From Tubulanus polymorphus (Eukaryota > Animalia > Nemertea), in contig NC_134027.1 of NCBI RefSeq assembly GCF_964204645.1, positions 12,122,485 through 12,186,484 of the forward strand: a stretch of 64,000 nucleotides of DNA, given 5' to 3'. Each line of letters opens with the position of its first letter. Position 1 is the stretch's first letter. This document shows, piece after piece, positions 36,990 through 60,000 of the stretch. The notes under the pieces are model-generated. The model was not told where the DNA came from. It was given only the letters and a program-made list of their open reading frames with translations, and did not search any database. The translations under genes were made by a program, and so were the position numbers.

Positions 36990-37080
36990 AGTAATTGGAA
37001 AAGTGGGCTTTCAGATCAGAGGACGAGAGGACGAGACACCACTCATCACCACAAGTAATTTCTTTTCCTAATAAATGGGA
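36990..37080 (+). repeat. Left terminal inverted repeat of the Polinton
   Basis: Perfect match to the reverse complement of 53254-53325 over ~72 bp; imperfect extension to the first ATG. Confidence 0.95.
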
Positions 37081-37400
37081 GATAGAAAAGCATTCTTAGC
37101 AACAATTAATAACAGAATAAAACCAGCAAAAAACAATTTGAAATAAAAAAGTTAGTTGATGTAACAAAAGAAATTGAACATAAAATATTGAAATTAGAAA
37201 AGATAGAAACTAAATATGGAGAGAAAGTATCCGCTAATTTAAGCTACTGTAATGTTAGTACATCGCGAGAATTTAAAGTATTTTTACCTGATAAATGGGT
37301 TTCATTGAGTACAGAGGAATTAAAAGATTTAGAAGGATTTAAAATAATCTATCATGGAAAAAATGAAGATGGCCATCATGATTTAGAAATTGTTGATTAA
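37075..37400 (+). CDS. Small Polinton protein, possibly an OB-fold ssDNA-binding protein; frameshift in an A-run at ~37130
   Basis: TAAATG start at 37075 joins ORF 37188-37400 (ETKYGEKV...KVFLPDKW) with a 1-nt shift; the fold assignment is a guess. Confidence 0.5.
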
Positions 37401-37561
37401 ATTTAAAAAAATAAATTAATAAAAATAATGAATATTAAGAATCCGAAATAACTTATCTGGACAATTTAATTGCTCCGCATAGATAGACAAAAGTAGTGAG
37501 ATATTCAATTAATATTCAATTAATTAAAAAAAAATTATTTTTTTGCTTTTTTTCTAAAATA

Positions 37562-37915
37562 TTAATCCATTTTTTTTATTGTCAATTTTGGAATTTCAGA
37601 ATTATTTTCATTTTTGATAGCAGTTGTTTCAGAATTATTAATATCATGAATTTTATTTGATTTCTTATACCAATTACACCCAATCAAAATGAATACAATT
37701 ACAAATCCAACTGTAAAATATAGACATTTATCAAATATTCTATTATTAGAAGGAGTAGAAATAACAATATTTTCACCATTTTTATTAACATTTTTATTAC
37801 TTATTTTTTCTTTTACAGCTTTTTTATATTCTTGTGATTTAATTCCTAATTGCCGAGACCATTCAATTTGTTTCTGTGATCTCGGTTTTTTCTTCACTTC
37901 TTCCACCTCGCTCAT
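37562..37915 (-). CDS. Polinton membrane protein, unknown function
   Basis: TAAATG start; one TM segment LYFTVGFVIVFILIG. Confidence 0.75.
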   Translation of the reverse strand: MSEVEEVKKKPRSQKQIEWSRQLGIKSQEYKKAVKEKISNKNVNKNGENIVISTPSNNRIFDKCLYFTVGFVIVFILIGCNWYKKSNKIHDINNSETTAIKNENNSEIPKLTIKKMD

Positions 37916-38438
37916 TTATTATAGAAATATTTTTATTTTCAATATTTGAAAATGTTATAACCCCAGTTGATAATAATGTCATAAATCCACCTAATTGAAA
38001 TGATAAATATCCAATCCATTTATTTAATTCAGTCATAACTAAATAATCATTTTTTAAATCGGAATATAATCTATTTTCATCTTCAATTGGTAGTATATAA
38101 TTACATAATTTACTATAACCTTTTACTACATTTTCTGATATCGCGTCATTAATTCTAGCTGTTCTCGCGGCTTCATAAATCTTAAATAATCTGATAATTT
38201 CATCTGATTTCATTGTATCTAATTCATTATAAGTTAAATTTTTACATTTTCCAGATGCTATTAATATTTCTAATTGATGTTTACAATAAAGATAATATTC
38301 ATAATTATTATTTGTTGTAACATTATTTAAAGCACCATCATCTGGAATTAATTTGTTTTCTGTTATTCCTAAATCATCTAAAGTTTTTTCAATTGGAACA
38401 TCACCATTTTTAGATTTTATTTTCATTTCACCTACCAT
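37863..38438 (-). CDS. Polinton protein with hydrophobic C-terminal segment, unknown function
   Basis: TAAATG start; WIGYLSFQLGGFMTLLSTGVITF. Confidence 0.75.
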   Translation of the reverse strand: MVGEMKIKSKNGDVPIEKTLDDLGITENKLIPDDGALNNVTTNNNYEYYLYCKHQLEILIASGKCKNLTYNELDTMKSDEIIRLFKIYEAARTARINDAISENVVKGYSKLCNYILPIEDENRLYSDLKNDYLVMTELNKWIGYLSFQLGGFMTLLSTGVITFSNIENKNISIINERGGRSEEKTEITETN

Positions 38439-38469
38439 TTATATAACAAAAAAATTATTTGTGATGTTG

Positions 38470-38742
38470 CAACTAGAATTCAACTAGAATGTTACTAGAA
38501 TTCAACTAGATTAACAAGCTAGTTGAAATATTGTTGTTTTTGTTTATTTCTTGTTAAATCTAGTTGATTTTTGTTCCAACTACCAATAACTCGAATTCAA
38601 CTAGAATGTAACTAGAATTAAACTAGATTAACAAGCTAGTTAAAATATTGTTAAATCTAGTTGATTTTTGTTACAACTACCAATAACTAGAATTCAACTA
38701 GAATGTAACTAGAATTCAACTAGATTAACAAGCTAGTTGAAT
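38470..38742. repeat. Non-coding CTAG-rich tandem/inverted repeat array inside the Polinton
   Basis: About 3 units of caactagaattcaactagaatgtwactagaattmaactagattaacaagctagtt. Confidence 0.85.
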
Positions 38743-39351
38743 TTAAATAAATTCATATTTAAATGGGTGTTGTAATCTAAATAGTAATTTTGATCTTTTA
38801 ATATTTTTCAACTTATCCATATATTCATTATGTAAATCATGTGGAATTATATCATTTTCCTCAAGTGCATTTTTCATCGATTTTCTATCTTTATTGTAGA
38901 ATAAAACTAGAAATCTAATGTTTTCTCTAAAGTCTTTAACAATTGAATTATATTTTTGATTTAAAACCCAAGTTGTTATCCCAAAATGTCTGCCAGAAAA
39001 AGCTAAATAGCATAACTCACTTTCTCTAACTTTTGAATCATGTAGACTAGCACAATCATCTATAATGAATAATGTATTTGATCCTTTATAAATATCAATT
39101 GCTATTTTAATACAATTATCTAAATTTTCTTCTACTGTTTTAGGATCTAATATAATAAATTTATTATTTCTAGTAATATTTCTATCATAAGTTTGATTAA
39201 ATTCATATGTTGGGCAAAATAATACTATATTATCAAAATAGTTTTCATAAACAGTTTCTAATAAATTTAATATAAAATAAGTTTTTCCACAATTTGTTAC
39301 GCCAGATATTAACATATTATGCGGCTCAAATATAAATAATTCTTTATTCAT
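38743..39351 (-). CDS. A32-like (FtsK/HerA) genome-packaging ATPase
   Basis: Walker A ISGVTNCGKT, Walker B LFIIDD, GRH motif, VLNQ. Confidence 0.92.
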   Translation of the reverse strand: MNKELFIFEPHNMLISGVTNCGKTYFILNLLETVYENYFDNIVLFCPTYEFNQTYDRNITRNNKFIILDPKTVEENLDNCIKIAIDIYKGSNTLFIIDDCASLHDSKVRESELCYLAFSGRHFGITTWVLNQKYNSIVKDFRENIRFLVLFYNKDRKSMKNALEENDIIPHDLHNEYMDKLKNIKRSKLLFRLQHPFKYEFI

Positions 39352-40477
39352 TTATATATTTTTAATTTTACTTGATAATATCCATTCATTGAATTTATCT
39401 GGCCATCCAACCCATTTTACTAAAGAATATTTTTTTCTTTTAATAGTTTTTGTTTTTAATACTTTTTCAATTTTATATTCTTGTTCTAGATTTTCAGTAG
39501 TTAAACTTAATTCTTCTTCGTAAAAGTAGCCATCAACTTCTTCACCATCTAAATCTTCTAATTTATAGACATATGGTTTTGTTGTTATTACCTTTTTTAT
39601 TTTATATATTTCTCTAGTAAAATTTCGATCGTATCCTTTATCAAATATCTTTTTATATCTTTTTATAACATTTTGACCAACTTTAAATTTAGGTTCACCT
39701 AAATCATCTACAAGAAATGCTCCATATAAATTATTCCAAACAATTTCAGCATTTTCAGGTTTTCTAGCATCAATAGGTTTCATTCCAATAGAAGAATGAT
39801 AAGAATTATTATATCCTTCTATCAATTTTGGTAAAACATCAATCCATTTAAAAGTATTATTTGCTGTAAAATATTTCCACATTCTTGTTCTTAATGTTCT
39901 ATTAAATCGTTCAACAACTGCTGCTTTTTTATCTGATATTGTTGAAAAATATCTAATATTATGATTGTCTAAGAGTTCATGAACAAGTGAATTATCAAAT
40001 TCTTTTCCATCATCAAATTGTATTTTTTCTGGTTTCAGTTTATCATCCGAAAGAAATTTTCTTAAAACATTTGATGTTTGTACAGCATCTTTTCTATAAA
40101 GTGGGAAGCTCCATACATAACGACTAAAAATATCAATTATATTCAATAACCACCAATAATCATCATTATCTTTCTTAACATTTTTCATATCAATTAAATC
40201 TCCTTGCCACTGTTGATCTACATAACTTACCATAGTTTTACGAGTTTTATATTTTCTAACAATTTTTTTATGTGTTGTGTATGTTGGTTGTTCTAACATA
40301 AATTCATTTATATCTTTATATTTAACTAAATTTTGTGGGATTATCTTATCTAATTTATCTTGTTTTACTTGACGCCATATATTTTTGGTAGAAGAAAAAG
40401 CAACCGAACTCTCAGGGTTGTAATATAAATTTCTTAAATATTGTTCTTTAGTATTAGGAGTTTTTTTTACCACCCAT
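39352..40477 (-). CDS. Retroviral-type (rve) integrase with C-terminal chromodomain
   Basis: WQGDLIDM, IDIFSRY, FDDGKEF, KAAVVERFNRTL, YNNSYHSSI, YKIEKVL..VKWVGWPDKFNEW; true start is probably TAAATG at 40477 with a 1-nt indel in the 40461-40468 homopolymer. Confidence 0.95.
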
Positions 40478-40507
40478 TTATATATCCTTAATTTTAACCT
40501 TATATTT

Positions 40508-41764
40508 CTAATATTGAACATTATCTAATTGTGAATTTACAATATCTAATTATGCGTCAGATATAATATAAATGTGCATTTTAAAATTTTTGATTCCTTT
40601 ATTCTTTGTCATGAATAATTGTATTCCATCTTTAGTGTTCTGTGATTTCTTCCCAGAACCATGTAATGAATTATCCTCTGTTGTTCTAAAATCTAACCAT
40701 AATGCATATTTATTACCGGTATAATAATCAATTTGATTAATGTTACAATTTTCAGATGATTTCACTTTTTCATTCATAAAATGTTTTCTAATTTCTGGCC
40801 ATTGATCAATCATTCTCATTCCTTGACAAAATATTTTATTTGCTATTCCTTCGATAGTTATTTCTACTTTTGTTATTTCAGGATTATAATAATTATCTAC
40901 CTTTATTGCTCCATTAGAATATGTTGCAATGGTAAAAAATATTAATATACCTTTAATAGATCTTCTTGGGAAGTTAATATTCTCATTAATTATTTCATCA
41001 TTTGCATTAATAGTTACAGTTTTAAATTTACTAATATAATCATATAATAATGAAAATCCTTGATTGTATTGAGTTTGAATTTTGCTAGCAATATTTTCAT
41101 TAGTTACTGTGTCATATTCTAAACATATATTCGATAATTTATAACCCATATCTTTAACAACGCTAGATAATACAATTTCATTTACAGGAGCAAATGTTAT
41201 CTCAAATATAATATCTTCTTGAATTGCGTATTTATATAAAGGTGCATTATTATTTATCAATTCAAAGTAATTATCAATTAATGGAATTTTATATTTGCTT
41301 CCATAAATCTTTTTAATCAAATTATCTACAGCATTAGTTACTATTGCGTCATTAGCTCCTGATCTTAATTTATTATGGTTTTCCGATTGAATACCCTGAA
41401 ATATCATATTATTTCTATTTTCTTTAGTTAACCATAAATCTTTATAATGCATAAATAAATTATAATCATCTAATGAGAATACTTTTTCTGGACCAATCTT
41501 TATTGTTAACTTTTTAATCAAATATCTTCCAACATTATCAACAACATAATTATTATCATTACCGGTTACTTGTATATCGGCTGATAATAAAATACTATTT
41601 GGAACATAAAAAGTATTTTGTGTTAATCGAGGAATTCTAACGTATAAAGTTTCATCAGGATTAATATTAGAAGGGTTATGAGTAATTATATGATGAGATC
41701 TTTCTGCTTTAATAGCATTAGATATTCTATGATTCTTAGAAGGATTGATATAACTCCCACTCAT
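40508..41764 (-). CDS. Major capsid protein (divergent double jelly-roll), premature TAA at 40550-40552
   Basis: ~417-codon beta-rich ORF next to the integrase and ATPase; reading through the stop gives IISDA*LDIVNSQLDNVQY; assigned from size, pattern and context. Confidence 0.72.
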
Positions 41765-41784
41765 TTATTTAACAAAAAAATTAA

Positions 41785-43209
41785 TTATTTATTTTTTATC
41801 ATGTTTACTAGCCCAAAAATAATTGCACTTACAACTGTAATTAAAAATAAAATAATATGTTCAGCAGCAAAGTTAATAATGTTTCCTGCAGATTTCAATA
41901 TGAAACCAACAATTGATGCAATAACTCCTGGTAATGCTGCAGCAGATTTTTTAGATAGTTCCCATAAATATTTTGCTAATTTCTTTAAACCATCCTTAAC
42001 TTTATCTTGTATAGAATTATTACCTGGGGGTTTATCTGGTTTATTGGGAGTAGGAGTAGATTTCAAAGCATTAGATATTGCTAAACCTATTGTTGTAAAT
42101 AACATAGTTACAGCTGTTAGAATTGAAAGAATTGTTATTCCTTCAAATTTAAATAATAATTCTATTCTATCTTTTAATGATATTTCAGAATTCGGTTTAA
42201 TCAACAAATCTTTAAAAATAACTTTTAATCTATTTATATTATAATCATATGATTTTAACAATAATTTAATTTCTTCTTTCTGTACATCTAAATTATCTTT
42301 TAAATTATTAATTTGTTTTTCTAAACGTAATTCTTTTTGCCTATATTCTATTTCATCAATTACTTGATGATCTAAATCAGACTTTAGTTGTTCTATTTCT
42401 TTATTTGCATTAGTTAATTCTTTTTCCAAATACATAATTTTTTGATCTCTTATACTTTTATTATGTGCAATTTTATCAGCTTCATTTCTTATACTAATAA
42501 TTTCTCTAATTGCTTCATCAGAAAATATATTTAAATCTTCTAATTGTTGATCTGTTGCATCAATTAATCCATTCGGTAAAAGTGTTTCAATTGAAACTTT
42601 ATTTGATTTAAGTTTACTAGTTTTGGAAGTTATATTCTGTTCAGATGTTGTTTCTGTTTCTGATTTCTTTTTGATTATTTCAAATAATTCATTAATTCTT
42701 TATTTAAATACGTCTATATCATTATCAGTTAATTCTTGTTTTATAACATCAGTTATTACATTACTATTACTAATTCTTTTAATTCTATCTGGATCTAATT
42801 TTCTCAAAGTTAATTTTGTTATTATTTTTTTTTTATAAGTGATATCAATATAATAATCATCTTTCAAACGATAATAACATTTACCATTATCTAAAAATTT
42901 TAATTGATCTGCTAAAAGTCCAACGTCTTCATCATTTATGTTAAGTTTAGATTTTTCAATTAAATCTTCTAATTTAGGTATTTTGTTTAAATTATCTAAA
43001 TCTTGTTTTACTAAACCTGGGTCTAAATTTTCAGGATTTAATTGTGATTCTGCATTTTTAATATAATCGGGCATATTTAAAGTATTATTATATCCTGGCT
43101 CATTACCGTCATTAGAACTTGTTTCACTAAAATCAGGTTGTTGTTCATCAGTTATGCCAGGTTCATCAAAAGGATCCATTCCAATATGTTCTCCACCTTC
43201 TACATCCAT
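41785..43209 (-). pseudogene. Coiled-coil protein with C-terminal TM helices, broken by an in-frame stop (~42700) and a frameshift
   Basis: ORFs 42700-43209 and 41785-42435 are bridged by an open frame ~42436-42680; a single TAAATG start at 43209. Confidence 0.7.
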
Positions 43210-43225
43210 TTATATAATAAAAAAA

Positions 43226-44524
43226 TTAAAATTTAAAATATAATATTCCTCCTATAACAATTCCTATATAAGTTAAAGCTAATTTAGTATTTTCATGTAA
43301 TTTATTATCATTATCAGTTTTAATTATATCATGTTGAATATCATCAGTTTTAATATTTTCTGTAGTATTATAATCCGGTTTAGAATCATTATTTAATTTA
43401 ATATTTTTAGTTTTAGTTTCTGTTGATTGAATACGTTTTTTATTTTTTTCACCTTCCATTAATTTTGGAGCAGTGATAATCTTTTTATTTATATCATTCA
43501 ATCCAAATGAATTATTTATTGTTGCGGTTTTAATTAGATTATTATAACCAATTATGTTTCCCATCTTTAATACTAAATCATTAGAAATAATAAATAGATT
43601 AGGGCCTATACAATAATTTAATCTAATATGTGATTTATCTAAATAATTTTGATATCTTACAATGTTTTCCGGAATCGATCTATTTTTATCATTATGAATT
43701 GAATCTTCAAATAATACTTTGAATTGTTTCTGCGCATCGAATGAAGTGTTATCATTTCCAATTATTGGGGATCTTGTTTCAACTTGCGCACCTAGAATAC
43801 ATATCAAATAAGTTCTAATAGATTGATTTATTCTTTGTATACCTGATTTTGTAAAACCTTCACCATTTTCTAAAATGAAATTAACCCAACCATTATTATT
43901 ATCAATGTTATAATTATGATAAGCTGAAATTCTATGCATATAATCAATTCTTTTTATTTCAAACTCTTCACCAACACCTTGCAATTTACCATGCGCTCTA
44001 AAATCGGAATTAATATTTATATTAAATTCATTACATATTTTATAAAACTTAGATAGATTAATATTATTATCCAATTCTTTAAAATATTTAGACCCGGGTA
44101 AAGGACATTCTAATTCATTTAATATTATTCTGATTTGAAAATATGTGTGAAATCTAAATATTGTGTGAATTAATTTTAAATCAGAATACTTCAAATTTTT
44201 ATCTAAGTTATTTAAATGATCATTCCAACTTATTCCGCATCCTGTTGTTGCACAATAAACAGCAAAATCTAATTGGTTCTGCCAATATTTCATATTAGAT
44301 TTTACTTTATATATATGATATTCATCTCGAGTAAAAGTAACTTCATATGTATTAAATATATTTTCCATTTTAGAAATAAAAAACTGTGATTCAGTAACAT
44401 AAATTTCTAAATTAGTTAATGAATTTAAAACTACATTTTTATATGTAATATTTTTTTTTAAATCTATTGCAGGAATATTATATTTAATTGATTTATTATA
44501 TTGGAAAGCTTTTGGAAACCCCAT
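43226..44524 (-). CDS. Polinton protein with C-terminal TM anchor, unknown function
   Basis: 432-aa ORF, TAAATG start, AVYCATTGCGISW motif, terminal ALTYIGIVIGGILYF. Confidence 0.8.
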   Translation of the reverse strand: MGFPKAFQYNKSIKYNIPAIDLKKNITYKNVVLNSLTNLEIYVTESQFFISKMENIFNTYEVTFTRDEYHIYKVKSNMKYWQNQLDFAVYCATTGCGISWNDHLNNLDKNLKYSDLKLIHTIFRFHTYFQIRIILNELECPLPGSKYFKELDNNINLSKFYKICNEFNININSDFRAHGKLQGVGEEFEIKRIDYMHRISAYHNYNIDNNNGWVNFILENGEGFTKSGIQRINQSIRTYLICILGAQVETRSPIIGNDNTSFDAQKQFKVLFEDSIHNDKNRSIPENIVRYQNYLDKSHIRLNYCIGPNLFIISNDLVLKMGNIIGYNNLIKTATINNSFGLNDINKKIITAPKLMEGEKNKKRIQSTETKTKNIKLNNDSKPDYNTTENIKTDDIQHDIIKTDNDNKLHENTKLALTYIGIVIGGILYFKF

Positions 44525-44540
44525 TTATATAATTAAAAAA

Positions 44541-44975
44541 TTAATAATTAACTAATTCTTTTAATAATTTATCTTGTTCTTCAACTGTTATATGGCCATT
44601 TAAATTTATTATATAATCTAGTGTATTCTTTAATTTATTAATTTCTTTTATATTAGTTTTAATTTTTTCTTTATTACTTTTTATATTTAATTTTGAACTT
44701 ATACCAGTTAAAACACTTGAACTTAATCCTAATACACCAATTGATATAGCTAAAGGTGTTAATGGACTGAATATTGCTAGAAATGTTATTAGAGAACTAA
44801 TTGTAACCGAACCACTTATAATCAAATAATATATAATTTTACTTTTTAAATATTTTTTCTTTTTTATCTTTAAGTCACTTTCAAATTCTAATATTTGTTT
44901 TTCTAAATATGTTTTTAATTTAGTTTTATTTATATCATGAGGAATAATATCAATATTATCAACTTTATCTTCCAT
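44541..44975 (-). CDS. Two-TM membrane protein
   Basis: TAAATG start; hydrophobic hairpin IIYYLIISGSV...AISIGVLGLSSSVL. Confidence 0.75.
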   Translation of the reverse strand: MEDKVDNIDIIPHDINKTKLKTYLEKQILEFESDLKIKKKKYLKSKIIYYLIISGSVTISSLITFLAIFSPLTPLAISIGVLGLSSSVLTGISSKLNIKSNKEKIKTNIKEINKLKNTLDYIINLNGHITVEEQDKLLKELVNY

Positions 44976-44995
44976 TTATTTAGCAAAAAAAATTA

Positions 44996-45418
44996 CTAAT
45001 TAGTAAACTTATAAGCAACAAATATAACAATAACTGTTCCACCTAAAATCAAAATTATTTCATATTTCTTCTGTTCATTACTTGGGGTATAATAATCTGA
45101 TAATTTAGGTTTGTATAGATGTAATTTTTCTTTATTGGTTTCCGCGTTATATAAACTCATTGCATCATCAACTGATTGAAAATCTCTGTGTGAAATCTTC
45201 TGATCATATAATTCTTTATTGATGTAATCCATATAGTTTTGTCTCTTTTCTCTATATTCTTCAGCTGCTTTATTGTATTTCTCTAATGCTAAGGTATGTC
45301 TTTTTTGTTCTGTAAATGAACCATTTTTATCAATATGCTTGAATAAATAACCACCACCAGTAAATGCTAAAGCGTTAACAATTGCCGATCCTATAATAGT
45401 TATAATTGCAGAAGCCAT
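44996..45418 (-). CDS. Membrane protein with N- and C-terminal hydrophobic segments
   Basis: TAAATG start; IITIIGSAIVNALAFTGG and IILILGGTVIVIFVAY. Confidence 0.75.
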   Translation of the reverse strand: MASAIITIIGSAIVNALAFTGGGYLFKHIDKNGSFTEQKRHTLALEKYNKAAEEYREKRQNYMDYINKELYDQKISHRDFQSVDDAMSLYNAETNKEKLHLYKPKLSDYYTPSNEQKKYEIILILGGTVIVIFVAYKFTN

Positions 45419-45442
45419 TTATTTAGTAAAATAATTACGCAT

Positions 45443-45664
45443 TTATATGGGAGGAATATATTTTTGTTTTTCCAAATAATCAATAGTTAAATTAGATAAA
45501 GTAACTGCTAATGTTAATTTTAAGAAATCATTTATATCAAATCTATCAACATTAACACTTCCCATTTTGAATACTTTTTTTAATACCATTGAATAACCAA
45601 CTGTTCCAACTGATAGTAATGCGCCATTATATAATCCAGTTATTATCCACTTATTATCACTCAT
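45443..45664 (-). CDS. Small hydrophobic Polinton protein
   Basis: TAAATG start; tightly packed with its neighbours. Confidence 0.65.
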   Translation of the reverse strand: MSDNKWIITGLYNGALLSVGTVGYSMVLKKVFKMGSVNVDRFDINDFLKLTLAVTLSNLTIDYLEKQKYIPPI

Positions 45665-45667
45665 TTA

Positions 45668-46021
45668 TTAATCAAAAAATTTACTATCTTCAAAATATTT
45701 AGTTATCTTAGTGATGATTATTTCAACATTTATTTTATTACTAGTTTCATTTGTATATATTTCAATTATTATTTTTTTAATATCATCGATGATAAAATCT
45801 TCATCTAATTCATAAAATCTTAAAGATTCTCTAATTAAATTAGTAATCTTTTCTACATTTAAAGTTTCTTTATCTATTGTTTTTTCATACTCAAATGTTG
45901 TTTCATTAGAAAATGCAATATTTTTAATATGTGTAATTACATCATTAATGTTAAATTTCATTTCTTTCTTACGTTTAAAATCAAAACCAAAACATATACT
46001 CGGTCCTACTGTTATATTCAT
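45668..46021 (-). CDS. Polinton protein, unknown function
   Basis: TAAATG start; tightly packed with its neighbours. Confidence 0.65.
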   Translation of the reverse strand: MNITVGPSICFGFDFKRKKEMKFNINDVITHIKNIAFSNETTFEYEKTIDKETLNVEKITNLIRESLRFYELDEDFIIDDIKKIIIEIYTNETSNKINVEIIITKITKYFEDSKFFD

Positions 46022-46037
46022 TTATATAGTGAAAAAA

Positions 46038-46796
46038 TTACTCTTTACATCTTATAACTAATTCATAAATTACGGGGAAATTATTTAAATCAATTAAGTG
46101 CCCATTATGATTTCTTATTTCTAATTTAAAATTATTAAATTGAGGAATACAAGGTTTAAAATCACATTCAGCTAAATTATAATTTATTTGCGTTCCAAAT
46201 TGTTTGACATTTTTCAATGGTAAAATATTTAATATACTAGAATGACAAATTGTATCTTTAGTTGCTTCAAATGTTTTTGTAGGATCGATTAAATTGCAAT
46301 AAATATAGAAATGTGTGTAAGGTATAATATTTGAATTACCGTCTACGTTTCCTGTAACAGTTTGTGGTTTAATTCCTAACAGTTTAGCTAAAGGTTTCCT
46401 TACCATAAATGCATGTTTGCTTTCATCATCTAACTTTATTTTGATTTTATCAGAACTATCACTTTTTATAAATTTAATTGAAAATTTATCTTCACTTTTA
46501 AGTTTTAATCGTGCTTTCCGATTAATTTCTTGGGCTAATGTTTCTAAATTATATAACCCTGGTTTTAACATTAGATAAAACCATTTATTTTTATTTTTCA
46601 TATGAATTGCAAAACCTCTATGTTCGAAAGTTTTATCCGATATATTATAAAAAGAATTACATAAACTTATATTTACTAATTTTAAATCTACACAATTCTT
46701 AAATTCTCTATTTAATTGAACTAGTAAATTATGTGATTTATAATTTGTAAGTTTTCTAGAATCAACAAATATTCTGTATTCTTTTAATTCTACCAT
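46038..46796 (-). CDS. Minor capsid (penton, single jelly-roll) protein
   Basis: IFVDSR..., NSFYNIS, LKPGLYN, FYIYCNLI, LEIRNHNGHLIDLNNFPVIYEL pattern typical of Polinton/virophage pentons. Confidence 0.8.
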   Translation of the reverse strand: MVELKEYRIFVDSRKLTNYKSHNLLVQLNREFKNCVDLKLVNISLCNSFYNISDKTFEHRGFAIHMKNKNKWFYLMLKPGLYNLETLAQEINRKARLKLKSEDKFSIKFIKSDSSDKIKIKLDDESKHAFMVRKPLAKLLGIKPQTVTGNVDGNSNIIPYTHFYIYCNLIDPTKTFEATKDTICHSSILNILPLKNVKQFGTQINYNLAECDFKPCIPQFNNFKLEIRNHNGHLIDLNNFPVIYELVIRCKE

Positions 46797-46864
46797 TATT
46801 TATAACATAAAAAAATTACCGCTCATCACTAAAAATCAATTTTAATAAAATTTTTCCTAAATAA

Positions 46865-48182
46865 ATGGATGAGAAGATAGCATGCGAAATTTGTGGTGAA
46901 CTTCTAAGAAAAAGTAATATGGCTCGACATATGAAAAAACATGATGAAAATTATAAACCCCCTAAACTAAACTGTCCAAAATGTAATAAATTATTCTCAA
47001 GAAATTATGTTAAAAAAACATTCAAAGAAGTGTAAAATTAATGGCGCAACGGCTAATGTTGATAGTAATGAAAGTAATAGTAATTCTGTTGAAGTTGAAC
47101 CTGAAGGTATTTGGAAAAGACCTTTCTTATTCTATGATAAGGATAATATAAAAGATCATATCTGTGAGCCTTGTCAAGTAAAATATAGCCCTGAAAATAT
47201 AGAAGATTGGGAGAATCATCAATTTCGTAAAGCACATATAGATAAAATTTCTAATAAATTTGAAACTGAATTCAATAAAAGAAAAGATAATTTATTAGAA
47301 AAAATAAAATATGAGAAAACGTTACCAGATAATAAAGAAACAGTTGAAAAGTTAGAAAAACAATATAATGAATTAACAAGAAAAACATATCATTGTAAAT
47401 ATTGTAAATTGATTATTAAAACAAGTAATTCAAATCTACATAATAGAACAATAAAACATAAAGAAAACGTAAGAAAATACCAGGAACTTAATGAAGATCT
47501 ATTACCAATAAATTATAAACGAAAATGTCCACAATGTAGTTATGCGACCTTAAGACAAGAAGGTACTGTGTTATTTTGTAATGAATGTGGATGGCAAAAG
47601 AATTTATGGAGTGAAGAAAAAACTAAAAATTTTCTCATAGATCCAAAATTAAATTATCTAGATGAAATTTTTAAAATATTTTCTATAGAAGATCATACAC
47701 CAGAATATATGCAATGGCTTGAAAAAATGAAAATAATAGAAAATAAAAATGGTGAAATAACTAAAAAAGATATTATAAAAACAATTATTCCGTCAACATT
47801 TAACACAAAACAAAAGAAAATGTATTTATATTTATTATTTAACGATTATTATGAAAAACCTAAATTAACAGAAGAAGATATGAAAAATATAAAAAAAATA
47901 TTCAAACAAATATTAATGTATCATTTGGAAAATAGAATAACAGATTCAATAAATTATGAATTCTTTTTAAATAAGATTGTAAATTATTTAAACCTAGATA
48001 TTATAATTCCATTTGATGAATTAACAAACAAAAAGAAACAAAGAGAGCGAGATGAAATGTGGAACAAGATAGAACTTTATTTAAATGAGAAAAATGAAAT
48101 GGAAGAAGAACCTAAACAATTAAATGAAAATGAAGAAGCCAATAGTGATTTCGAGAATGACGATATTGATTTTATGTTTTAA
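46865..48182 (+). CDS. Zinc-finger protein with C-terminal poxvirus A2/VLTF-3-like late transcription factor domain; frameshift in the A-run at ~47012-47018
   Basis: TAAATG start at 46865 (CEIC..HMKKH, CPKC); CPQC-x13-CNEC ribbon, KNFLIDPKLNYL, IKKIFKQI..SINYEFFLNKI..DEMWNKI match vaccinia A2 as recalled. Confidence 0.78.
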
Positions 48183-51100
48183 TGACCATAAGGTAATGTT
48201 TTTATACCATCATCTAAAATATGCCTTTTATCATCAAATGGATTCAAACTAGTTTTTTCAACTTCATTAATGTATATCTCGTGATATTCTGATCTTAAAC
48301 AATTCATTTTGTGTTTCATTACAATTGAGTTATATAAACACTTTATATAATCTTGAAATTCTATATGTTTATCAACCACATGTTTTGTTATTCCTTTTAA
48401 CTTTTTAGCTTCATGATCTTTTGTTCTATAACTATGCATTTTACTTCTTATCCCAACAAATTCAATCATTTCATCACCCCCTAATTCATCTTTAAACTTA
48501 CCAGGAATCTTTTTATTATCATTGCTAAATAGTTCATGATCTTTGGGATAATTGCTAAAATCAAAATGATGTTTTAATGTTTTTAAGTCTTTTGTTATAT
48601 CATTTGTCTTGATTTTTAGTATATACGCATCCGTATTGAAGCAAATTAATGGAAATCCACAGTTAAATAAACCATCTTCAGTTGATAAATCATAAACATA
48701 ATCTGATGGGTTATGTATTTCAAATAAATCTTTAACCTCTTCAGTTAAATCTTTTTCTGTGTGGCTTAGCTTAAAGCAATTTGGTTTAGATTTAATCAAT
48801 CCAATATTCATATTGAAGCCTAATGAATTACATAATATATTTAACCCTGATATAGCAACTTTTCCTTTCTGTGCAAAGGTTATCTTTTTATCTTTTGTAA
48901 ATTTTTTAGCACCATCTGCTGCATAGAATCCAATGAAGAACCATTTTCTTAAATTATTTTTTGCATTTAATACATAATCTGGAACTATCTTTTCTTTTGT
49001 TGAAGTATTACTTTTCACTATTGCATGAATATAGAATTCATCATTATATTTTATAGCAAAATCTTTAGGATTATTTATAAGTATTCTATAAACTGCTGAT
49101 GATTTCATAACATCCATGATTCTAAATGTTTTATGTGAATAAACTTCTTCACAGAATTTCTTAATTCTTTCTAATAATTTTAAGTCTTGATTGCATAAAT
49201 ACCAACAATATTTATTACCCCAAACATAATTATACACACCTGCTGAACCATCTCCCATGAAAAATCCTTTGATAAAATATTCTTTTTCTTCTAATGTTTC
49301 GGTTTCTATGTTATAAATATTATCAATTATTTCATCAAATGACATATGATTCATTCTTTGGAAAAATCTTTTATGTAATAATTCATCTCCAATTTTTATA
49401 TCAGTTGGTTTTATTTCATTACCATTTCGTTTAATTAAACTATGATCTTCTGTAACATCTACAAACCCTAATTTAGTTCTAACTCTATAAATTTTCTTAT
49501 TTGTTTTATGCCTAATAATATTCTTTAATTTTTTCCATCCATTTCTTGTCCAAACATCCATTAAACCATTTATTTGTATTAATTCTTTTTCACCATATGA
49601 AATATAACATTCATTTTGTTTTGGAATTATTTCTGAAATTCTTCTTACCAATATTTTATTATTACATTTTAATAATATTGGGGTGTCAGCTGTTACAGAA
49701 TCAAAATATAATATTTCAATATGCTTTTCCCCAAAAAGTGGTTGTAAAACATTATAATAAAAATCATACATTAATAATTTTGATACTTCTAAAACAGTTG
49801 AACCAATGAATATAGGTTTATCAAATTTCATTGACGTTCTTTTTAATTTAACTGCTGTTAAATAATCTTCAAATCTTTTATTTCCTAAATGTCTAGGACT
49901 TGATTGTAAATGTCTTAATCTTTCAGAATTATTTACTAATTCAATATCATTTCTATTTCTAATATTTTCACATGTTTTACAATAAAAACTATTGTTCATT
50001 AATTTAAAAAAATCTTTTTCAAAATCTGTTTTTGATATGGTACTCTGTTGAGTATTAAAATCTATATATTTTTCTAACCACTTCGATTGATTAAATTCAA
50101 TATATCTATGTACTTTCTTTAATTTCATTCCTTGTTTCAGATAAAATTTTAACATTCTATAATGAACAATATAATTGTATTTATTATTTTGAGTAAGTAT
50201 TAATTTTTCTGTAAAAACATGATCTTTCGGTTTTATTTTCTTCTGGTATTCACTTAAATAACTATCATCTACAGTTAAATGTTCTGGGCAATAAGGTAAG
50301 TTTCTTGTTTTAACCTTTATATTTTCAGGATATTCTAAATCAACTACAAAGAAATAACCAATTGGTGCTTCATCTTTTAAACTCGCAATTGCGCTTTCCC
50401 AATCAGTTTTATCATCATTTTCAACTTCTGTTAATATAAAATTTTTATATGGTTGAGGTTGCATCATTGCCCAACCATATAAATTATTGGTGTCAATATA
50501 TAATAATTTATATTAATCATTTGCTGTAAAATACCTATCTCCCATAACACCACTAATTCCACCTCTAATTGATTTTTCAAATAATAAAACCATATCTGGT
50601 TCTTTTAATAAATCTAATTCTACATTTGTATATTTTAAACCACATTGCCAGGTTAAACCAGGACTTGAATAACAATAACAAGGATCAACATTAAAATGAT
50701 TCAAATTAACTTCTCTAAATTTTTCAAATATGTCAGCCAATATCATAACATCTGATTTTAAATATAAATCAACTAATTCACCATGATTTTTCATCTTAAA
50801 ATGGTTCCAAATATTTAATTTTCTATTAAACACTTCGTCTTTCACATACTCCTCTTTTAATTGATCATAAAATTGATCTTTTAATAATTCTGTTACATTA
50901 AAATCATTGTGTGTTTTATAAAATGAATAAGGAATTGCGCCTTTATATCTCAATAATTTAAAATCTTGTTCATTTGGATAATAATATCGAGTTATAACAA
51001 AATCATTATCAACTAAACTTTTTGATAAATTATCTAATGAACTTGCTAGAAATCTATAAGAATCTAAAAATCTAATGCAACCAAATTGAAATGAAATATA

Positions 51101-53241
51101 ATTTTCAGATGTTTTAGCTAATAGTTTAAAATCATATTTTCTTACATTTACACCATTCATAGCATTATATTCTTCTATTTCTTGATTAATTGTACCCAAT
51201 TTCTTTGATAATTGTTTTATAAATAGATGGGTATCATAGCCTGATAAATTATGAAATAATATTGGTACGAAATTAACTTTCTTAGCTTGTAAATTGCAAT
51301 CTTCATGAGCAGCTCCACGATATTTTGAATTTAAATGATCATGATCTCTAACTTTTTTATCAAATGAATAAAAACGTTTTTCACAATAACAACAATGAGT
51401 TGCATAATTAAAATCAATTTCATCTTCTTTTGTCATAACTATTCTTTTATTTTTGTTTAATAATTTTGCAAAATCACTTTCTAATTCAATCATTTTATCA
51501 CAAAAAGCATTAACTACATTTTCACCTCTAAAAAAATATATTGACTTTCATATAATTCGGGATAATTTGATTTGATGTAAATTCCATAAGCAGCAGCTCT
51601 TTGATGAACTTTTTTAATTGTATTTATAATTGGTGGGTCTTGTATTGTGTCTTCATTTAATTCATTTCCTTTATCCATTGATTTTAATAATTGCTTTTTG
51701 TTATATATTTCTTTTCTATCTTGATCAGTTAATTCTTTATTCAACGATTCAAAATCCCCATAAATTACAAATGGAACAATATTCTTAAATTTATGATTAG
51801 TAAATTTCAATTTATAATCTTTTTCTGTTGGCATTATTAATTTGCAAAAATCTTTATTATCACATAATTCTTTATGTTTTAATAATGTATTCTCTGTCAT
51901 AAATTTAGATAAACATTTTCTACATAGATAAATTTTATGATGATGATCACTTTCTGTTCTAAAGAATAAATCAATTTGTTTTAACCACATATAATGTTCA
52001 TTTTCATCTTTTTTGTAATATAACAAATCTATAGCATTTTCATCATCATAATATTCTGTTAAATATAAAGCTTCCAATGTATAATCTTTAATATTTTCAC
52101 CTTTTGTCTTTGGTAATTGCATTAATTCAAATACATTTATTTTTAACTTATTAATTTTTTCTATTTTGGGTATCATTTTTATAGTTACTGGATATTGATC
52201 AATTTTATATAATGTTTCATATTTCCGATAATCTGTTATTCTACAAACATTTTCCTGTGTTGGATGTGAACAACTAATAATTGACCATAGAAAACATTTA
52301 TTATCTTCATTTTGAACATTTATTACTGCTTTTGTTGTAAATGGTAATTTAATATAAGATGATGCTTTAATATCCTTTTCTGTTGTAAAGTTTGAATCAT
52401 TTTTAAACATTTTATTACTTTTTGATGTTTTATTCCTTATTGTATTGTAAACATTTAAATCTAAATATATAATTTCATTCAATGTTAAGCCAGAACCCTC
52501 AAAATATCTTTCTTCAATATGACGTTTAAATTCATTGAATATTTTTTCTAACTTCTCTTTTATTTGCGTTTTTGAAATTATTTCTTCAGAGAGTGTTTGA
52601 ATATTATAATCCATTTTTTCTTCTGACTTTATAAAACTTACTTTCCCAGAGATACTAATTTTTGGATATTCAACATCTGTTATCAAATCTAGTATTTTTT
52701 CTATTATTTCATTAAATTTACTATAATCTTCTATTGTTGTACCTTTAAAAAATCTAAATATAATAGCTGCAGGACCAATTTTACTATGTAATGTTTCTAA
52801 AATTTCAATTGTATCTTTTATTTCTAGTGAATCAATATAATTTCTAACATTTTCCATGTAAGGTTTATTTGAAATGGATTTAGTTTTTGAATTTGGTTTT
52901 TTTACTTTTTGAGGTTTATCGTTAAAATAATCTTTTCCTAAAACATTATTACTCAAATTTTGGTGGTGTTTTTGTGATTCGAGATGTCTATTATAATTCC
53001 TTTTTACTATAAATTCATTACAAACTTCACATTTTATTTCATCCACATTCATATTTTCTAATCTTTCTTTTCTTTCATTGGAATTTTCTGGAGTTTCAAA
53101 ATCTATTACATTTTTTATATGATTTGCAGTTTTTTCATGTCGTGTTTTATTAGATCTATCCACGTATTTTTTACAATATGTGCAATAATATTGATTTTTA
53201 TTAACATTATTGTTTTCTGGCTGGTGTTCATTCTCCCCCAT
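48179..53241 (-). pseudogene. Protein-primed family B DNA polymerase (pPolB) with intein; one frameshift (~51530) and one in-frame TAA (50513-50515)
   Basis: YGDFES (exo I), FHNLSGYD, FLDSYRFL, YLKSDV, YIDTNNLYGWAM (motif A, read through the stop), KLMNNSFY.K (motif B), YFD/TDA (motif C split by the intein), GKFKDE, KLKGI, DDKR. Confidence 0.95.
48635..49699 (-). mobile_element. Intein (355 aa) with LAGLIDADG homing endonuclease inserted in pPolB motif C
   Basis: YFD|SVTADTPILL...VTEDHSL (block B TxxH)...FIKGFFMGDGS...FFIGFYAADG...YVYDLSTE...LICFN|TDA; removing it restores YFDTDA. Confidence 0.95.
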
Positions 53242-53325
53242 TTATTAGGGAAAAAATTACTTGTGGTGATGAGTGGTGTCTCGTCCTCTCGTCCTCTGAT
53301 CTGAAAGCCCACTTTTCCAATTACT
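53236..53325 (-). repeat. Right terminal inverted repeat of the Polinton
   Basis: Reverse complement of the left TIR; followed by TSD TCAATG. Confidence 0.95.
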
Positions 53326-53337
53326 TCAATGAACTAC

Positions 53338-54194
<857 letters not shown>

Positions 54195-57093
54195 GAACCC
54201 GTGCAGCTGGATGCTTTTTAATTAATTTTGCAAGGTGGATTGTAGGATTAGCTACGCTACCACCAGCGTCATCTATCGAACATAAATTGAAGCTTTAGCC
54301 AGCTTATAGAGCCAAATATCATTGGACTTTATTTAAGCTTTTTGGCTTTGCTAATTTCGTGACTCATAATAATGAATAATGAAAAAAACCCTCATCAACT
54401 TTTGATATTTGAGTGAGGTGACGGTAAACTGATACCTTAATTCCATAGGCCCACAACGGCAACCCGATGTGGGACCGTGTTACGTTAGGCGTAATGCACG
54501 TGGAGTGAGGGAGCGAGGACCAATCCACCCAATCGCATAATCACGATTCACAGTGAATCAATTTGTGCCCAACAACGGCAGCACCACAAAAAAGTCAGCA
54601 GAGAAAGAAAGAAGAATGACAAGTCAGTCAAACGTTAAAAAACACACGGACCGCGGAGGGAAAATCATATAATCAACTGAGTTGGTACAATATTAATAGA
54701 TACATTAAAGTCGCGTACCTCTAATAACTACCAGTAAGAATCCAGTTTTGATTTTTCGGGATGGTTTCGCCTTTTTTCGTTATTTTGCTTGTACTAAAAA
54801 CCGTCAGGAAATTAAAATACAGTTTTTTAGCTCCGCTGTGACCGAAGGTCAGCGGAGCTGATGGGTTAGGGGGTTCGTCGTCGTCGTCCGTCCGTCCGTC
54901 CGTCCGTCCGTCCGTCCGGTGTTCGGTGTCCGGCGTCAACTTTTTCTTTATATCCCTACTAGTCCTACAGTTCTGATGGGATCTTGATGAAACTTGGTAT
55001 GAATGATCTATGGGGGAGTGCCTACAAAAGTACAGAGCCATAATTTTGATTTTGCATAAATTATGCAAATTAGGGCTATTTTTAGATTTTCACTAAAATC
55101 GCTACTCCTCCATCGATTTTCAGCGGATTTCAATCAAACTTGGTATGAATGATCTATGGGGGAGTGCCTACAAAAGTACAGAGCCATATTTTTGATTTTG
55201 CATGAATTATGCAAATTAGGGCTATTTTTAGATTTTCACTTAAATCGCTACTTCTACTTCAGTTTTCAGTAGATATCAACCAAACTTGGTACGAATGATG
55301 TATGGGGGAGTGCCTACAAAAGTATAGAGCCATACTTTTGATTTTGCATAAATTATGCAAATTAGGGCTATTTTTAGATTTTCACTTAAATTGCTACTTC
55401 TACTCCAGTTTTCAGTAGATTTCAACCAAACTTCATATGAATGATCTATTGGGGAGTGCCTACAAAAGTATAGAGCCATATTTTTGATTTTGCATAAATT
55501 ATGCAAATTAGGCCTTTTTTAGATTTTCCTTTCAATCGCTACTCCTCCAATTTTCAGCGGATTTCAAACTTAGTATGAATGTTTGTATAGGGGATTGTCT
55601 AAACCAGTATAGAGCCATATTCTAGATTATGCATAAATTTTGCAAATTAGGGATAATTTTTTTAGATTTTCACTTAAATCGCTACACCTTCTTCAGTTTT
55701 TATCAAATTTGAATTAAAGTTTTTATGAATGATCTATGGGATGATGCCTACATAAGTATAGAGGATGTTTTGCAAATTAGTTCTATTTATAGATTTATCT
55801 TGTTAAATGACTGCTTCTTCGGTTTTCAAACCGAACTTGGTATAAATGAACAATGGATGGGAGAGCCATATACTATAGCCTACTTCATTTGCAATAGTTT
55901 TTCAATTTCTAAAACTTTTGTGCTATAATATTATCGGTATAAATAAATTCAAATGCCTTTTATCGTAAGTAAGGATACAAGATGGACTGCAAGTTGGACC
56001 GTTCAGCATTGCCATTATTTGAAGTAAGTTTCTGAAGAAGCCTACACTAGTTCTAACCATATAAGTAATCATTTATTGCATTTCGTGTTGACTTTTGTTT
56101 GTGATTCTGGCAAATTTTCTTAGAAAAAAGCATTGAGATTGCACTAGGGCCTATTACGTGCAGAACATCTAGAGTCAATTTATATAAAAGATGAACATGG
56201 ACATTATAAAATCAAAATTTTATTTGATAACTAATTTCTTTATTGTGATGTAATTAACATATTATATGTGATGAGTTTACTAGTAGTTCCACATAAAATG
56301 TTACGGTTTATTTCTAACTAAATGTGCACAACAGTTAGTGCATGTTAAACTTTTACACCCTGCATGGTTTTGTTTTTGTTAAAAATAAATATGCATTTAT
56401 TGAACTAATCAAAATAACAACAATACAGATATTAAAGGTTTTTTGTCTATGTAGCCATTGTCTGTTTCTGTATGATAGCTGTGATTGATTGAATTCTGTG
56501 TGTTTAAAAAGTAGCTGGTACAGCAATTAGGCCTAATTTTGTATGATTCTGCAATGTATGATTCTGCAATTGAAAGAAACAGGCGTTTGAATATGTTTGT
56601 TCACTGTTACTAATTACATTTTTGTTTTACAGATTGCTGTGTAATATAAAGGTTTTTAGGTATGATAATCATAGGGCACACAAAATCCAGAAGGATTTAG
56701 CAATATAAGTGAAATGCATTTTCATATTTGTATGAACTTGCTTGTTTTTTGGAGTTTCAATACTATGTATTTCCTTCTGTATCATTTTGTTGCACGATGT
56801 AATTTAATTTTCTCACATTGTGAATAAATTTTATGATTGAGTTAAGATTTTGTGTGCCAGATTTACTAACAACTAACAATTTTATTACCATGAACATTAA
56901 ATTACTTGGTATTCTCATCACATGTATTGGTTTTCTCTTGAATTATATCATGATAATTGCTTTTGTTTACTTATATTCGAGAAGATCTTTGTAATATGTC
57001 AAACTAATCCTATACTTCATGTGTATCTTAATATTATTGTTCTATTTTCAGTGAATTTAGTAGTACTTATATGTAGTGATATAAATTCGCAAA

Positions 57094-60000
57094 ATGCCAC
57101 GTAAAACGAAAAGGCTTAAACAATTGTGCAGTGCCAGACAGACAGCCAAGGTATTAATTGTAATCTAGTAATAATATATTTAATTAATAAGCATTATTAT
57201 TCATTTTTTTTTAGACTTCAAAACTACACTTGATATTTTGGTTCATACTCCGCAACTATGTAAATGATATTAAATTTAGTTGCATTCTCTTGTAGGTTAA
57301 GGCACATACAGAACCAGAGCCGATAGCCAGCGATGCCAATCCATTGGAGTATCATCTCCACAAACAAAATGAGACTGAGGAGTATCCTCTCCCTAATAAA
57401 AAAAAGGAGTGTGTGGAGTATCCTCTCTGTGAAAAAAAGGAGTGCTTAAAGACATGCTCAAAGACATGCTTAAAGACATCTAAAGATTTTTGCTTGCCGA
57501 AACTCGTGAATGTATCTGATGCTTCTTCCTCAGAGAAGTGTATTAATACAGATAAATTCAGTAATGTAAGTTCAGAAATTGTTTCGAGATTCTCACCTTA
57601 TGCTATGTGCGTGAGAGGTCATTTTCACCAAGGTGATACAAAGTTATTTAGTGCATTATCAGTTGGAAACCAGTGTACATGTAATGCATTAGTCAGTCTT
57701 TGTAAACTACCATCTTTGAGTAGGGTAACAGCTAATGATATTGACCAGGTCCTCTTTCAAGGTGACTCTTTGTACATTAGTGTCAGAATGAATCAGTCCA
57801 ACAGATATTTAAGTTTTGATGAACTGCCATTATTTATACCAGTTGATAGACCTAAGTACAGAATAAATAGGCTTTCTAGCTACTATGTGAGTTATGACAA
57901 CATAGAAAAGGCACATGGGATATTTCATTCTCTTTGTGCTGCTATAACTCAATCATTATCTGATTCTATAACGGTTCTTGTCATGATTGGTGAATTTGCA
58001 ATAGCAATATACAGTTTAAGTGGAATGTATTTTGTATTTGATTCTCATAGTCGAGACAATTATGGAAACTTTGTTGATGACAGTACAGGTACAGCAGTTT
58101 TACTAAAGTTTCCTAACTTGGATGAAATAAAGAAGTATTTGAGATATTATATTTTAACCTGCTGCAGTCAACAGCATCGTTCTTGTGAATTTTTACCGAT
58201 CAAAATTGAAAATGTCGAGGAGAGTAAAAATGAATCTAGTCTAGCAAATTATGTATTCGATCAGAAGATAAAAAGACAGGAGTATATTCGTCTGTATAAG
58301 CAGAAACAGAGACAAGATGAGGCATTTAAAACAAATGAAAGAACTTGTAAACATAAAGCTAGAATGATCCCTGAGAAAAGAGCGAGTGAACAGATCCAAG
58401 GTAGACAAAGTAAGCAAAGAGCTAGAGCGATACCTGAAAAAAAAGCAGCTGATCAGCTTAGTAAGCAAAAAGCTAGAGCGACACCTGAAAAAAAGGCAGC
58501 TGAACGAATTCACAGTAGATTAAGTAGGCAAAGAGCTAGAGCGATACCTGCAAAAAAAGCAGCTGAACACCTTAGTAAGCAAAAAGCTAGAGCGACACCT
58601 GAAAAAAAGGCAGCTGAAAATATTCACAGTAGATTAAGTAGGCAAAGAGCTAGAGCGATACCTGCAAAAAAAGCAGCTGAACAGATTCACAGTAGATTAA
58701 GTAAGCAAAGAGCTAGAGCGATACCTGAAAAAAAGGCAGCTGAAATGATTCACAGTAGATTTAGTAAGCAAAAAGCTAGAGCGATTCCTGAAAAAAAGGC
58801 AGCTGAACAGATTTACAGTAGATTTAGTAAGCAAAAAGCTAGAGCGATTCCTGAAAAAAAGGCAGCTGAAATGATTCACAGTAGATTAAGTAAGCAAATA
58901 GCTAGAGTGATTCCTGAAAAAAGAACAGCTGAACAGACTCTGGACAAATTAAGGAAGCAAAAGAAACGAAATGAAAGCAGTTTCAGACAAAATGAAGTCA
59001 AACAAAAACGAAAGACTAGAGAAAGTGACCTATATAAAGAATTTGAAAGAGAAGCTAAAGCCGCAAAAAGAGCATTATTTAGAGAAAATGAAATAAATTT
59101 TGCGAATGCAGAAGATATCAGCTCTCAGTGTTCGACAAATTCGAATTTTGCTACCAAGCGAAAATGTGATTTAATGAAAGTCATTGATAAATTTCATGAA
59201 AAGATTTCAATTGGTCCAATATATGTGTGCACATGCTGTCACCAGACCTGGTTCCAACATTCAGCACAGAAATCTTCATTATTAACCTCTAAGTTATCTG
59301 ACAAACTAAAAGAAAAATGTATTACTGGAAAGATTTCAGTTAATGATGAACAATGGCTGTGTGTAACATGTGCAGAATCATTGAAAAAGAATAATGTGCC
59401 AAAGCTATCTGTGGCCAATGGATTGTCATTCCTGGAAAAACCAAAAGAATTGGAATTATTTCTTAGAATTCCTTTTATGAGTTTGTATGAATTACCGAGA
59501 GGTGGTCAATATCAGCTGCAGGGATCTGTTGTGAATGTTCCAGTTGACATTGCTCCGACTGTTCAGTCATTGCCAAGAAATGTTGACACAGCTGCTACAG
59601 TTCCAATAAAGTTAAAACGCAAGCTCAGTTACAAAACAGCAGTATTACAACAGAATGTTAGGCCTTTAGCTGTATTAGCTGCTCTACACTATTTGATGAG
59701 AACCACTCTGTATAAAAATGCAAACATAAACATTGATGAGAACTGGTTGAACACAGTTTGTGAAGAGCAAGGTATCATACCACCATCTGAACCTGAAAAT
59801 GATTATGCCAGTGATAGTGATTCTGATGCTTTTAGTGAAATAGACCCAGATGAGAATCCAACAGGAAATCAGGATACTATGTTAGATGAAGCAAGCATTG
59901 ATTCTGTAAGGGTTTTGACATATGCTCCAGGTGAAGGTCAGAAACCATTGAGTCTGTTCCAAGATAAAGATGCCGAATATTTATCATTTCCCACAATATA

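Follow-up and report, generated by a model that had tools for sequence, protein, structure and literature searches.

The closest described systems to the locus reported here are the inteins of giant-virus DNA polymerases and the integrated elements called Polintons. The type of intein and its insertion site are already known from the PolB of Mimivirus (APMV), as set out in the relevant part of PMC549080. Polintons, or Mavericks (Polintoviricetes, adintoviruses), encode a protein-primed DNA polymerase (pPolB), and the pertinent sections of PMC8502044 and PMC10748475 describe pPolB inserts that consist of HNH or VSR nuclease domains and lack splicing parts. Neither main text uses the word 'intein', and a passage of PMC11071308 proposes, as a suggestion only, that pPolB nuclease inserts 'result from intein invasions'. 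A Polinton virion has not yet been seen, according to a passage of PMC10748475, and two reviews state that metazoan genomes lack inteins (PMC5784728, PMC8529194). Here, we describe an intein in the pPolB of a Polinton found in a 64,000-nt stretch of the Tubulanus polymorphus assembly (NC_134027.1, positions 12,122,485 to 12,186,484, forward strand), hereafter the window. A sequence-only reading of the window had claimed a full-length homing-endonuclease intein in this polymerase, and the claim was borne out by domain matches, predicted fold and reads that skip 1065 nt. Our overall reading, to which we assign a probability of about 0.8, is that a LAGLIDADG intein occupies motif C of the Polinton polymerase, moves between Polintons by homing, and stems from an ancient jump out of an RNA-primed PolB of giant-virus type. 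No description of a Polinton intein was found in the literature searched, with most subscription journals, Repbase, InBase and supplements (e.g., the PMC5784728 table of viral inteins and the PMC10748475 alignments) lying outside the search.

An intein splits motif C of a Polinton polymerase

The insert is a stop-free stretch of 355 aa at 48635-49699 on the minus strand, corresponding to residues 257-611 of a 762-aa open reading frame (ORF; 48179-50467, minus strand). It parts motif C between YFD and TDA, that is, at the D|TD site of pPolB (the bar marks the insertion point). A Hint splicing domain, made up of about aa 1-110 and 320-355, encloses a two-helix LAGLIDADG endonuclease, the helices of which (aa 136-150 and 248-262) end in D150 and D262, both aspartates being kept. 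Position 1 is Ser1, a residue invariant across the 76-row family alignment; T83-E-D-H86 satisfies the Thr-x-x-His of block B, D337 is the Asp of block F, and the intein ends in Phe354 and Asn355, followed by Thr+1. The Ser1, TEDH, the two helices with their acidic residues, the Phe-Asn end and Thr+1 are all as the sequence-only reading had described them. Ser1, the terminal Asn and Thr+1 are the nucleophiles of class 1 splicing, which the F:4 Asp and the G:6 and F:13 His assist, these being usual and not obligatory (PMC4031507, in its section on the mechanism).

The sequence-only reading had staked its claim on Hint and LAGLIDADG matches, and both were found above their cut-offs: TIGR01445 (intein N-terminus) at 31.1 bits (cut-off 24.5) and Pfam LAGLIDADG_3 (PF14528) at 25.8 bits (cut-off 22.5). 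Pfam Intein_splicing reached E=1.5e-7, yet its 31.8 bits fall short of the cut-off of 35.8. The top Protein Data Bank (PDB) match by sequence was the PI-PkoII intein. An AlphaFold model built from the 76-row alignment has a pLDDT of 93.9, and its top PDB folds are endonuclease-bearing inteins, namely TliVMA (7qsu, E=3e-17), PI-PkoII, PI-PfuI and PI-SceI (2cw7, 1dq3 and 1vde among the matches); I-DmoI is also among the fold matches. All 19 columns invariant in the 76 family members hold in the window intein. A penultimate Phe as the mark of a dead intein was considered and rejected, since among 382 parsed family members Phe is penultimate in 20 and His in just 176, with Lys in 139 and Ser in 26. 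On the family matches, the fold and the reads described next, the insert is annotated as a class-1-type intein, and that it is a real one is virtually certain. Its endonuclease domain is full-length and is predicted from sequence to cleave the empty D|TD site.

Reads that carry the same species label, taken from an independent study (one run, X6, of which 12% was read), hold this Polinton polymerase family at high depth. In 31 of them, with about 21 start places, position 48634 is joined to 49700 with the omission of exactly 1065 nt, which confirms the intein boundaries independently, and a further 54 reads skip the intein with slightly altered flanks. The mean depth inside the intein is 217, whereas the deepest four bins of the flanks average 639. 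This ratio of 0.34 indicates that about one third of the related copies are filled, or roughly 55-225 filled copies for an assumed genome of 0.5-2 Gb. Filled and empty alleles therefore stand side by side in the window species, as they do in three other clusters of related polymerases, and the intein-free alleles that the sequence-only reading had proposed looking for among sister elements exist.

The intein belongs to a pPolB family nested among RNA-primed PolB inteins

Relatives were collected by an intein search, from which the best 120 of 290 longer proteins and the best 150 of 2116 cluster representatives were taken, and two ORF searches added more. The 382 family inteins parsed became 376 after six misparsed rows were removed before tree building. 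Ranked by likeness to the window intein, and among the matches listed, ranks 2-22 of 376 all reside in pPolBs; the first host of another kind is a GVMAG PolB, and APMV appears at rank 101. With pPolB inteins as its nearest 21 relatives, the window copy would have had another Polinton, not a giant virus, as its immediate source. There are at least 16 pPolB inteins at less than 90% identity, partial ones excluded, and 16 of 16 distinct ones have both LAGLIDADG aspartates and Asn|Thr ends. Open full-length frames of pPolB plus intein occur in six relatives (P0002, P0003, P0006, P0013, P0014 and P0398). The window intein is thus almost certainly one of a family residing in Polinton pPolBs. Scans for the DNA around related pPolBs, covering P0002 and P0003 in metagenomes, P0013 and P0012 in genomes, and P0018 and the capsid gene in viral contigs, returned none, so the Polinton context and the hosts of these relatives rest on protein type and contig size. 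Two intein scans of viral contigs (37 and 32 loci) gave no pPolB host among the loci parsed (21 of 32 in the second), and GenBank phages gave one weak intein match only (28%).

Most of the family, 324 of the 382 parsed members, sits at the YGD|TDS site of RNA-primed PolBs. A 268-row FastTree was built, along with a 60-row IQ-TREE whose rows were picked from it. The main pPolB intein clade received a support of 99 in the former and 100/100 in the latter, where it comprises 12 of the 60 rows. It joins RNA-primed PolB inteins, ChoanoV1-like and GVMAG ones among them, with a shortened C-terminus of the G[FT]PLI.KN type (support 95 and 89/94, respectively), a group of 14 rows of which 11 reside in ChoanoV1/Mimiviridae-like PolBs and three in T4/RB69-like PolBs. 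The nesting of the Polinton inteins within the RNA-primed PolB motif-C family indicates that a transfer between RNA-primed and protein-primed PolBs happened, and we consider it probable that the Polinton inteins derive from the pool of giant-virus-type PolB inteins. A second pair of pPolB inteins (P0299 and P0398) is placed apart from the main clade; we do not claim two independent invasions of pPolB, as the approximately unbiased (AU) test gave p=0.269.

These results also settle how far the giant-virus origin put forward by the sequence-only reading can be followed. Its account of the Mimivirus intein was accurate: the intein of APMV PolB (P0440) starts at residue 1053, at YGD|TDS, and eight of the eight motifs that it named occur in both the window and the APMV inteins. 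The link to giant viruses stands through the nesting, but Mimivirus itself is not close, and as the donor it was rejected on 38% identity by BLAST, on its rank and on its tree position. Likewise, the proposed transfer between the two polymerase types agrees with the nesting, but the footprint of a shared virus factory is not given by the tree, given that T4/RB69-like inteins lie in the sister group.

Other members of the family have diverse hosts. P0016, P0018, P0019 and P0167 are T4/RB69-like PolBs, with E=1e-55 for the best PDB match, and one of them lies on a 236-kb contig; their inteins belong to the Polinton/ChoanoV1-like sub-clade. Topoisomerase II carries the same family at a D|TD-like site, and some PolBs carry it in motif B (N|S) (P0009, P0105, P0113, P0194 and P0282; L059-L066), which indicates that such jumps recur. 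P0104, named as the Pol delta catalytic subunit of Chloropicon primus and with a C4 zinc finger, has an intein of this family at YGD|TDS. P0012 is an intein-bearing Polinton-type polymerase that was assigned to the bacterial bin of Ca. Thiodiazotropha ex Ctena orbiculata and is probably host DNA.

Intein distribution and site differences point to homing between Polintons

A polymerase tree was built from 50 of 88 rows; at least seven changes of state between filled and empty are needed on it, every one forced by starred branches. The polymerases nearest the window's (P0296, at 86%; P0297, P0400 and P0403) are empty. Together, these two observations favour homing from one Polinton to another. 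The closest intein, that of P0002 (63%), resides in a polymerase that is only 55-58% alike, and P0006 carries a 47% intein in a pPolB that is not alignable with the window's (E=0.36). Intein and polymerase trees are in conflict.

Closely related filled and empty copies were compared within clusters. In the P0003 cluster, 15 of 136 members were compared, and those listed include seven filled and six empty copies that are mostly 98-99% alike. Between the filled copies and an empty one (P0132), 13 of 65 positions round the site differ, compared to 13 of 1126 elsewhere (p=7e-11), and ten differences between -7 and +44 are fixed. Motif C is YMD|TDS in 7/7 filled copies and altered in 6/6 of the empty copies listed (YFD|TDA, YTD|CDS, YGD|TDA). 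The P0398 cluster shows just three differences in 1256 aa, at -3, +4 and +5; FTD|TDS, a common motif found in 39 of the 69 empty rows, is kept in its filled copy and altered in its empty copy. Such tracts of differences at the site would be left if flanking sequence of a diverged donor was co-converted, or if the site had changed to escape cutting. P0128, P0130-P0132, P0134 and P0135 of the P0003 cluster, and P0479 and P0485 of the P0398 cluster, are possible homing-escape alleles. Judging from these patterns, the pPolB inteins have probably spread by homing.

The host element is a decayed Polinton

The element that carries the intein spans 36990-53325 (16.3 kb) and has about 23% GC compared to about 38% in its flanks. 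Its terminal inverted repeats, at 36990-37064 (beginning AG) and 53251-53325 (ending CT), are identical over 72 nt and are bordered by a 6-bp target-site duplication, TCAATG, at 36984-36989 and 53326-53331. The minus strand encodes an A32-type packaging ATPase (38743-39351; Pfam Pox_A32 E=4e-13), a retroviral-type integrase with a chromodomain (39352-40521; Pfam rve E=3.5e-10, Chromo E=9e-4) and a probable major capsid protein (40550-41764), the last recognized by size, position and a weak Pfam Capsid_N match below cut-off (E=0.007). No Pfam match to a protease was found among the 17 element ORFs scanned. With its terminal repeats, duplication, pPolB, rve integrase and A32 ATPase, the element is a Polinton.

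As a correction to the sequence-only reading, the 762-aa ORF is just the third of the three fragments into which the pPolB gene is broken. An N-terminal piece (51514-53241, minus strand) starts at a TAAATG adjoining the right terminal repeat, and a middle piece (50513-51493, minus strand) matches PF03175 and holds an endonuclease VII-like insert. The third comprises the N-extein portion (49700-50467, minus strand), which contains motif B and ends in the YFD of motif C, the intein, and the C-extein (48179-48634, minus strand), which starts with TDA. An intact 1336-aa relative aligned over the three ORFs places a frameshift near 51530 and an in-frame stop before 50512; introns are an unlikely reason for the three ORFs, as the relative aligns straight through both breaks. 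Motif B carries a Gly-to-Cys change seen in 1 of 42 rows. The window copy is therefore decayed, and because the polymerase is broken upstream of the intein, the intein of this copy is probably not translated. At both breaks most overlying reads disagree with the window sequence, so that other copies are probably without them. The sole plus-strand gene (46865-48182) also seems split, into a 56-aa zinc-finger ORF with a TAAATG start and a 391-aa ORF in another frame, and is a further sign of decay.

Most genes of the element are preceded by a repeated gene-start motif, AATT(W)TTT...TAAATG (37562-53275, minus strand). Within the window, TAAATG lies at 11 of the 15 element gene starts compared to 41 of 642 other ATGs (p=3e-10), the T-rich box AATT(W)TTT lies upstream of 9 of 15 element genes and is absent from the flanks, and the element has 12 copies of the composite motif where 47.7 kb of flank has none. 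Each terminal repeat runs into a TAAATG. Counts of TTTTTNT were uninformative, the coding strands being A-rich.

Among the flanking repeats are a Helitron, a Pao/BEL remnant and satellites. The Helitron Rep/Pif1 ORF at 57344-63325 (plus strand; 1993 aa) looks intact, and it includes 63-nt repeats and a deubiquitinase domain like that of herpes tegument proteins. Two inverted arrays of a 146-nt repeat (29912-30624 and 54824-55763), at most 99% alike over 364 nt, lie about 25 kb apart with the Polinton between them. On the minus strand, 5804-6526 and 16935-18887 contain fragments of a gene for a UPF1-like helicase that bears zinc fingers; repeats interrupt the gene, which presumably resembles metazoan HELZ. 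The host of the intein-bearing Polinton is inferred to be an animal, which we consider highly probable.

Weighing the evidence and alternative explanations

Several observations weigh against our overall reading. As regards origin, the support for the sister group is below 95 in IQ-TREE, under a mixture model (quick tree) that group collapses to a polytomy with T4-like PolB inteins, and a single origin of the 14 pPolB inteins placed in the AU test was not rejected. The DNA at the insertion site shares 11-15 of 24 nt between giant-virus PolBs (15 loci) and the window pPolB, too little for ordinary homing, and the GC3 of the intein, 0.15, matches the 0.12-0.17 of the element, which indicates that the first jump is old. 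The TAAATG starts suggest transcription of poxvirus type, but the nearest giant-virus inteins are Mimiviridae-like. As regards homing, an empty allele of the P0008 cluster (P0145) shows no differences near the site, a pattern that either precise loss or homing out of a near-identical donor could leave, and patchy intein presence can be obtained by repeated loss. The assisting histidines G:6 and F:13 are both absent from the window intein, as from APMV and many relatives, and splicing and site cleavage are themselves predictions.

The route of entry is the part of our reading with the strongest competitor. TAAAT is the vaccinia intermediate/late initiator consensus (PMC6211774, in the passage concerned), and Polinton-like viruses have been met in entomopoxvirus occlusion bodies (PMC11296320, likewise in part). 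The TAAATG gene starts thus suggest, as separate support, co-infection or transcription by a large-virus system, although they could instead serve an element-encoded factor plus the host polymerase. Entry by way of a shared virus factory is in our view a little short of an even bet. The competing explanation, which bears on the route of entry only, is that the donor was a phage-type PolB or, in a protist nucleus, endogenous giant-virus DNA or the Pol delta intein of the host, and that the intein reached animals later, carried by a Polinton it had already invaded. It draws on the occurrence of the same family in the Chloropicon-named Pol delta, in T4/RB69-like PolBs and in topoisomerase II, on the viral-like intein-bearing polymerases of algal nuclear scaffolds (in a passage of PMC10710043), and on the polytomy that the mixture model leaves at the donor branch; with T4/RB69-like inteins in the sister group, membership of it alone is also no sign of a shared factory. 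However, the Chloropicon and topoisomerase II inteins lie far from the Polinton clade, the T4-like ones are three rows within a group of mostly Mimiviridae-like hosts, and the gene starts of the element suggest a large-virus transcription system. Entry without a shared factory is accordingly a serious option, though one to be held tentatively.

A single old insertion, inherited vertically and lost precisely many times, with no homing among animal Polintons, would account for an intein composition fully adapted to the element, for the identical flanks of P0145 and for the AU result, and the changes on the polymerase tree cannot separate gain from loss. We nevertheless find it unlikely: the intein of P0006, a member of the clade, sits in an unalignable polymerase; in the pair formed by the window and P0002 the intein is more conserved than the polymerase; both catalytic aspartates are kept in 16/16; and differences concentrate at the insertion site.

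That the element lies outside an animal genome, on a contig of a protist or other eukaryote or in a chimeric assembly, is very unlikely in view of the clean target-site duplication, the repeat-rich flank and the high depth of the family in the independent reads; the relative P0012 was binned under the name of a symbiont of the clam Ctena orbiculata, and other relatives lie on contigs of up to 1 Mb. That the insert is a dead Hint/endonuclease remnant, unable to splice and inactivating the polymerase, could be argued from the two breaks, the Gly-to-Cys change in motif B and the penultimate Phe, but is more improbable still, given the 19 conserved columns, the frequency of residues other than His at the penultimate position and the open full-length frames in six relatives.

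Proposed mechanism and comparison with known systems

We propose that the intein would leave the polymerase by class 1 splicing, through an ester at Ser1, a branch at Thr+1 and cyclization of Asn355, without a penultimate His (as in more than half of the family), a step that would be needed to rebuild motif C. The endonuclease would cut the empty D|TD site in sister Polintons, and repair would copy the intein in, sometimes with flanking sequence; some empty alleles may drift to altered sites that are perhaps resistant to cutting. The first entry into Polintons would have been a rare event guided by the short common core round D|TD, most likely during replication of a Polinton ancestor in a cell infected by a member of the Nucleocytoviricota. 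Only tentatively do we extend this to a live germline intein system in animals, in which an intein from a giant-virus PolB would have invaded factory-transcribed Polintons and would now be sweeping through them and driving escape changes in motif C.

The Polinton described here shares its terminal repeats, 6-bp duplication, pPolB, rve integrase, A32 ATPase and probable capsid gene with the Polintons characterized in the corresponding sections of PMC8502044 and PMC10748475. The entomopoxvirus Polinton-like hyperparasites are likewise small viruses that integrate, and their partner is a large animal DNA virus of the cytoplasm (PMC11296320, in part); they represent the setting that the co-infection idea requires. 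The terms intein, promoter and TAAAT are absent from that paper, and the window Polinton is not known to have a helper virus. Outside animals, nuclear scaffolds of algae and labyrinthulids also carry a viral intein-bearing polymerase in a eukaryotic nuclear genome; PMC10710043 speaks, in the passage concerned, of 'viral-like DNA polymerases' without naming Polintons, whereas the carrier in the window is one of a multicopy family in which some alleles are filled and others empty.

The closest match to the intein itself is found in Mimivirus and allied Nucleocytoviricota, the PolB inteins of which have the same D|TD site, Ser1, terminal Asn and Thr+1, a LAGLIDADG endonuclease and a length of about 350 aa, at 38-42% identity (PMC549080, in part). 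In contrast to APMV, the host protein in the window is a protein-primed polymerase that is not alignable with APMV PolB, the host element is a 16-kb integrated Polinton, and the shortened C-terminus of the Polinton inteins is common to ChoanoV1-like inteins and not to APMV. That unalignable polymerases share one intein indicates that a short D|TD core can suffice for a jump and, as homing can happen only where donor and recipient DNA share a compartment, such an intein marks where Polintons replicate and whom they meet. Set beside the known systems, a multicopy and polymorphic Polinton intein alters the statement that metazoan genomes have no inteins, at least for mobile DNA, and the filled, empty and altered-site alleles within single clusters form a natural system for studies of homing, co-conversion and escape.
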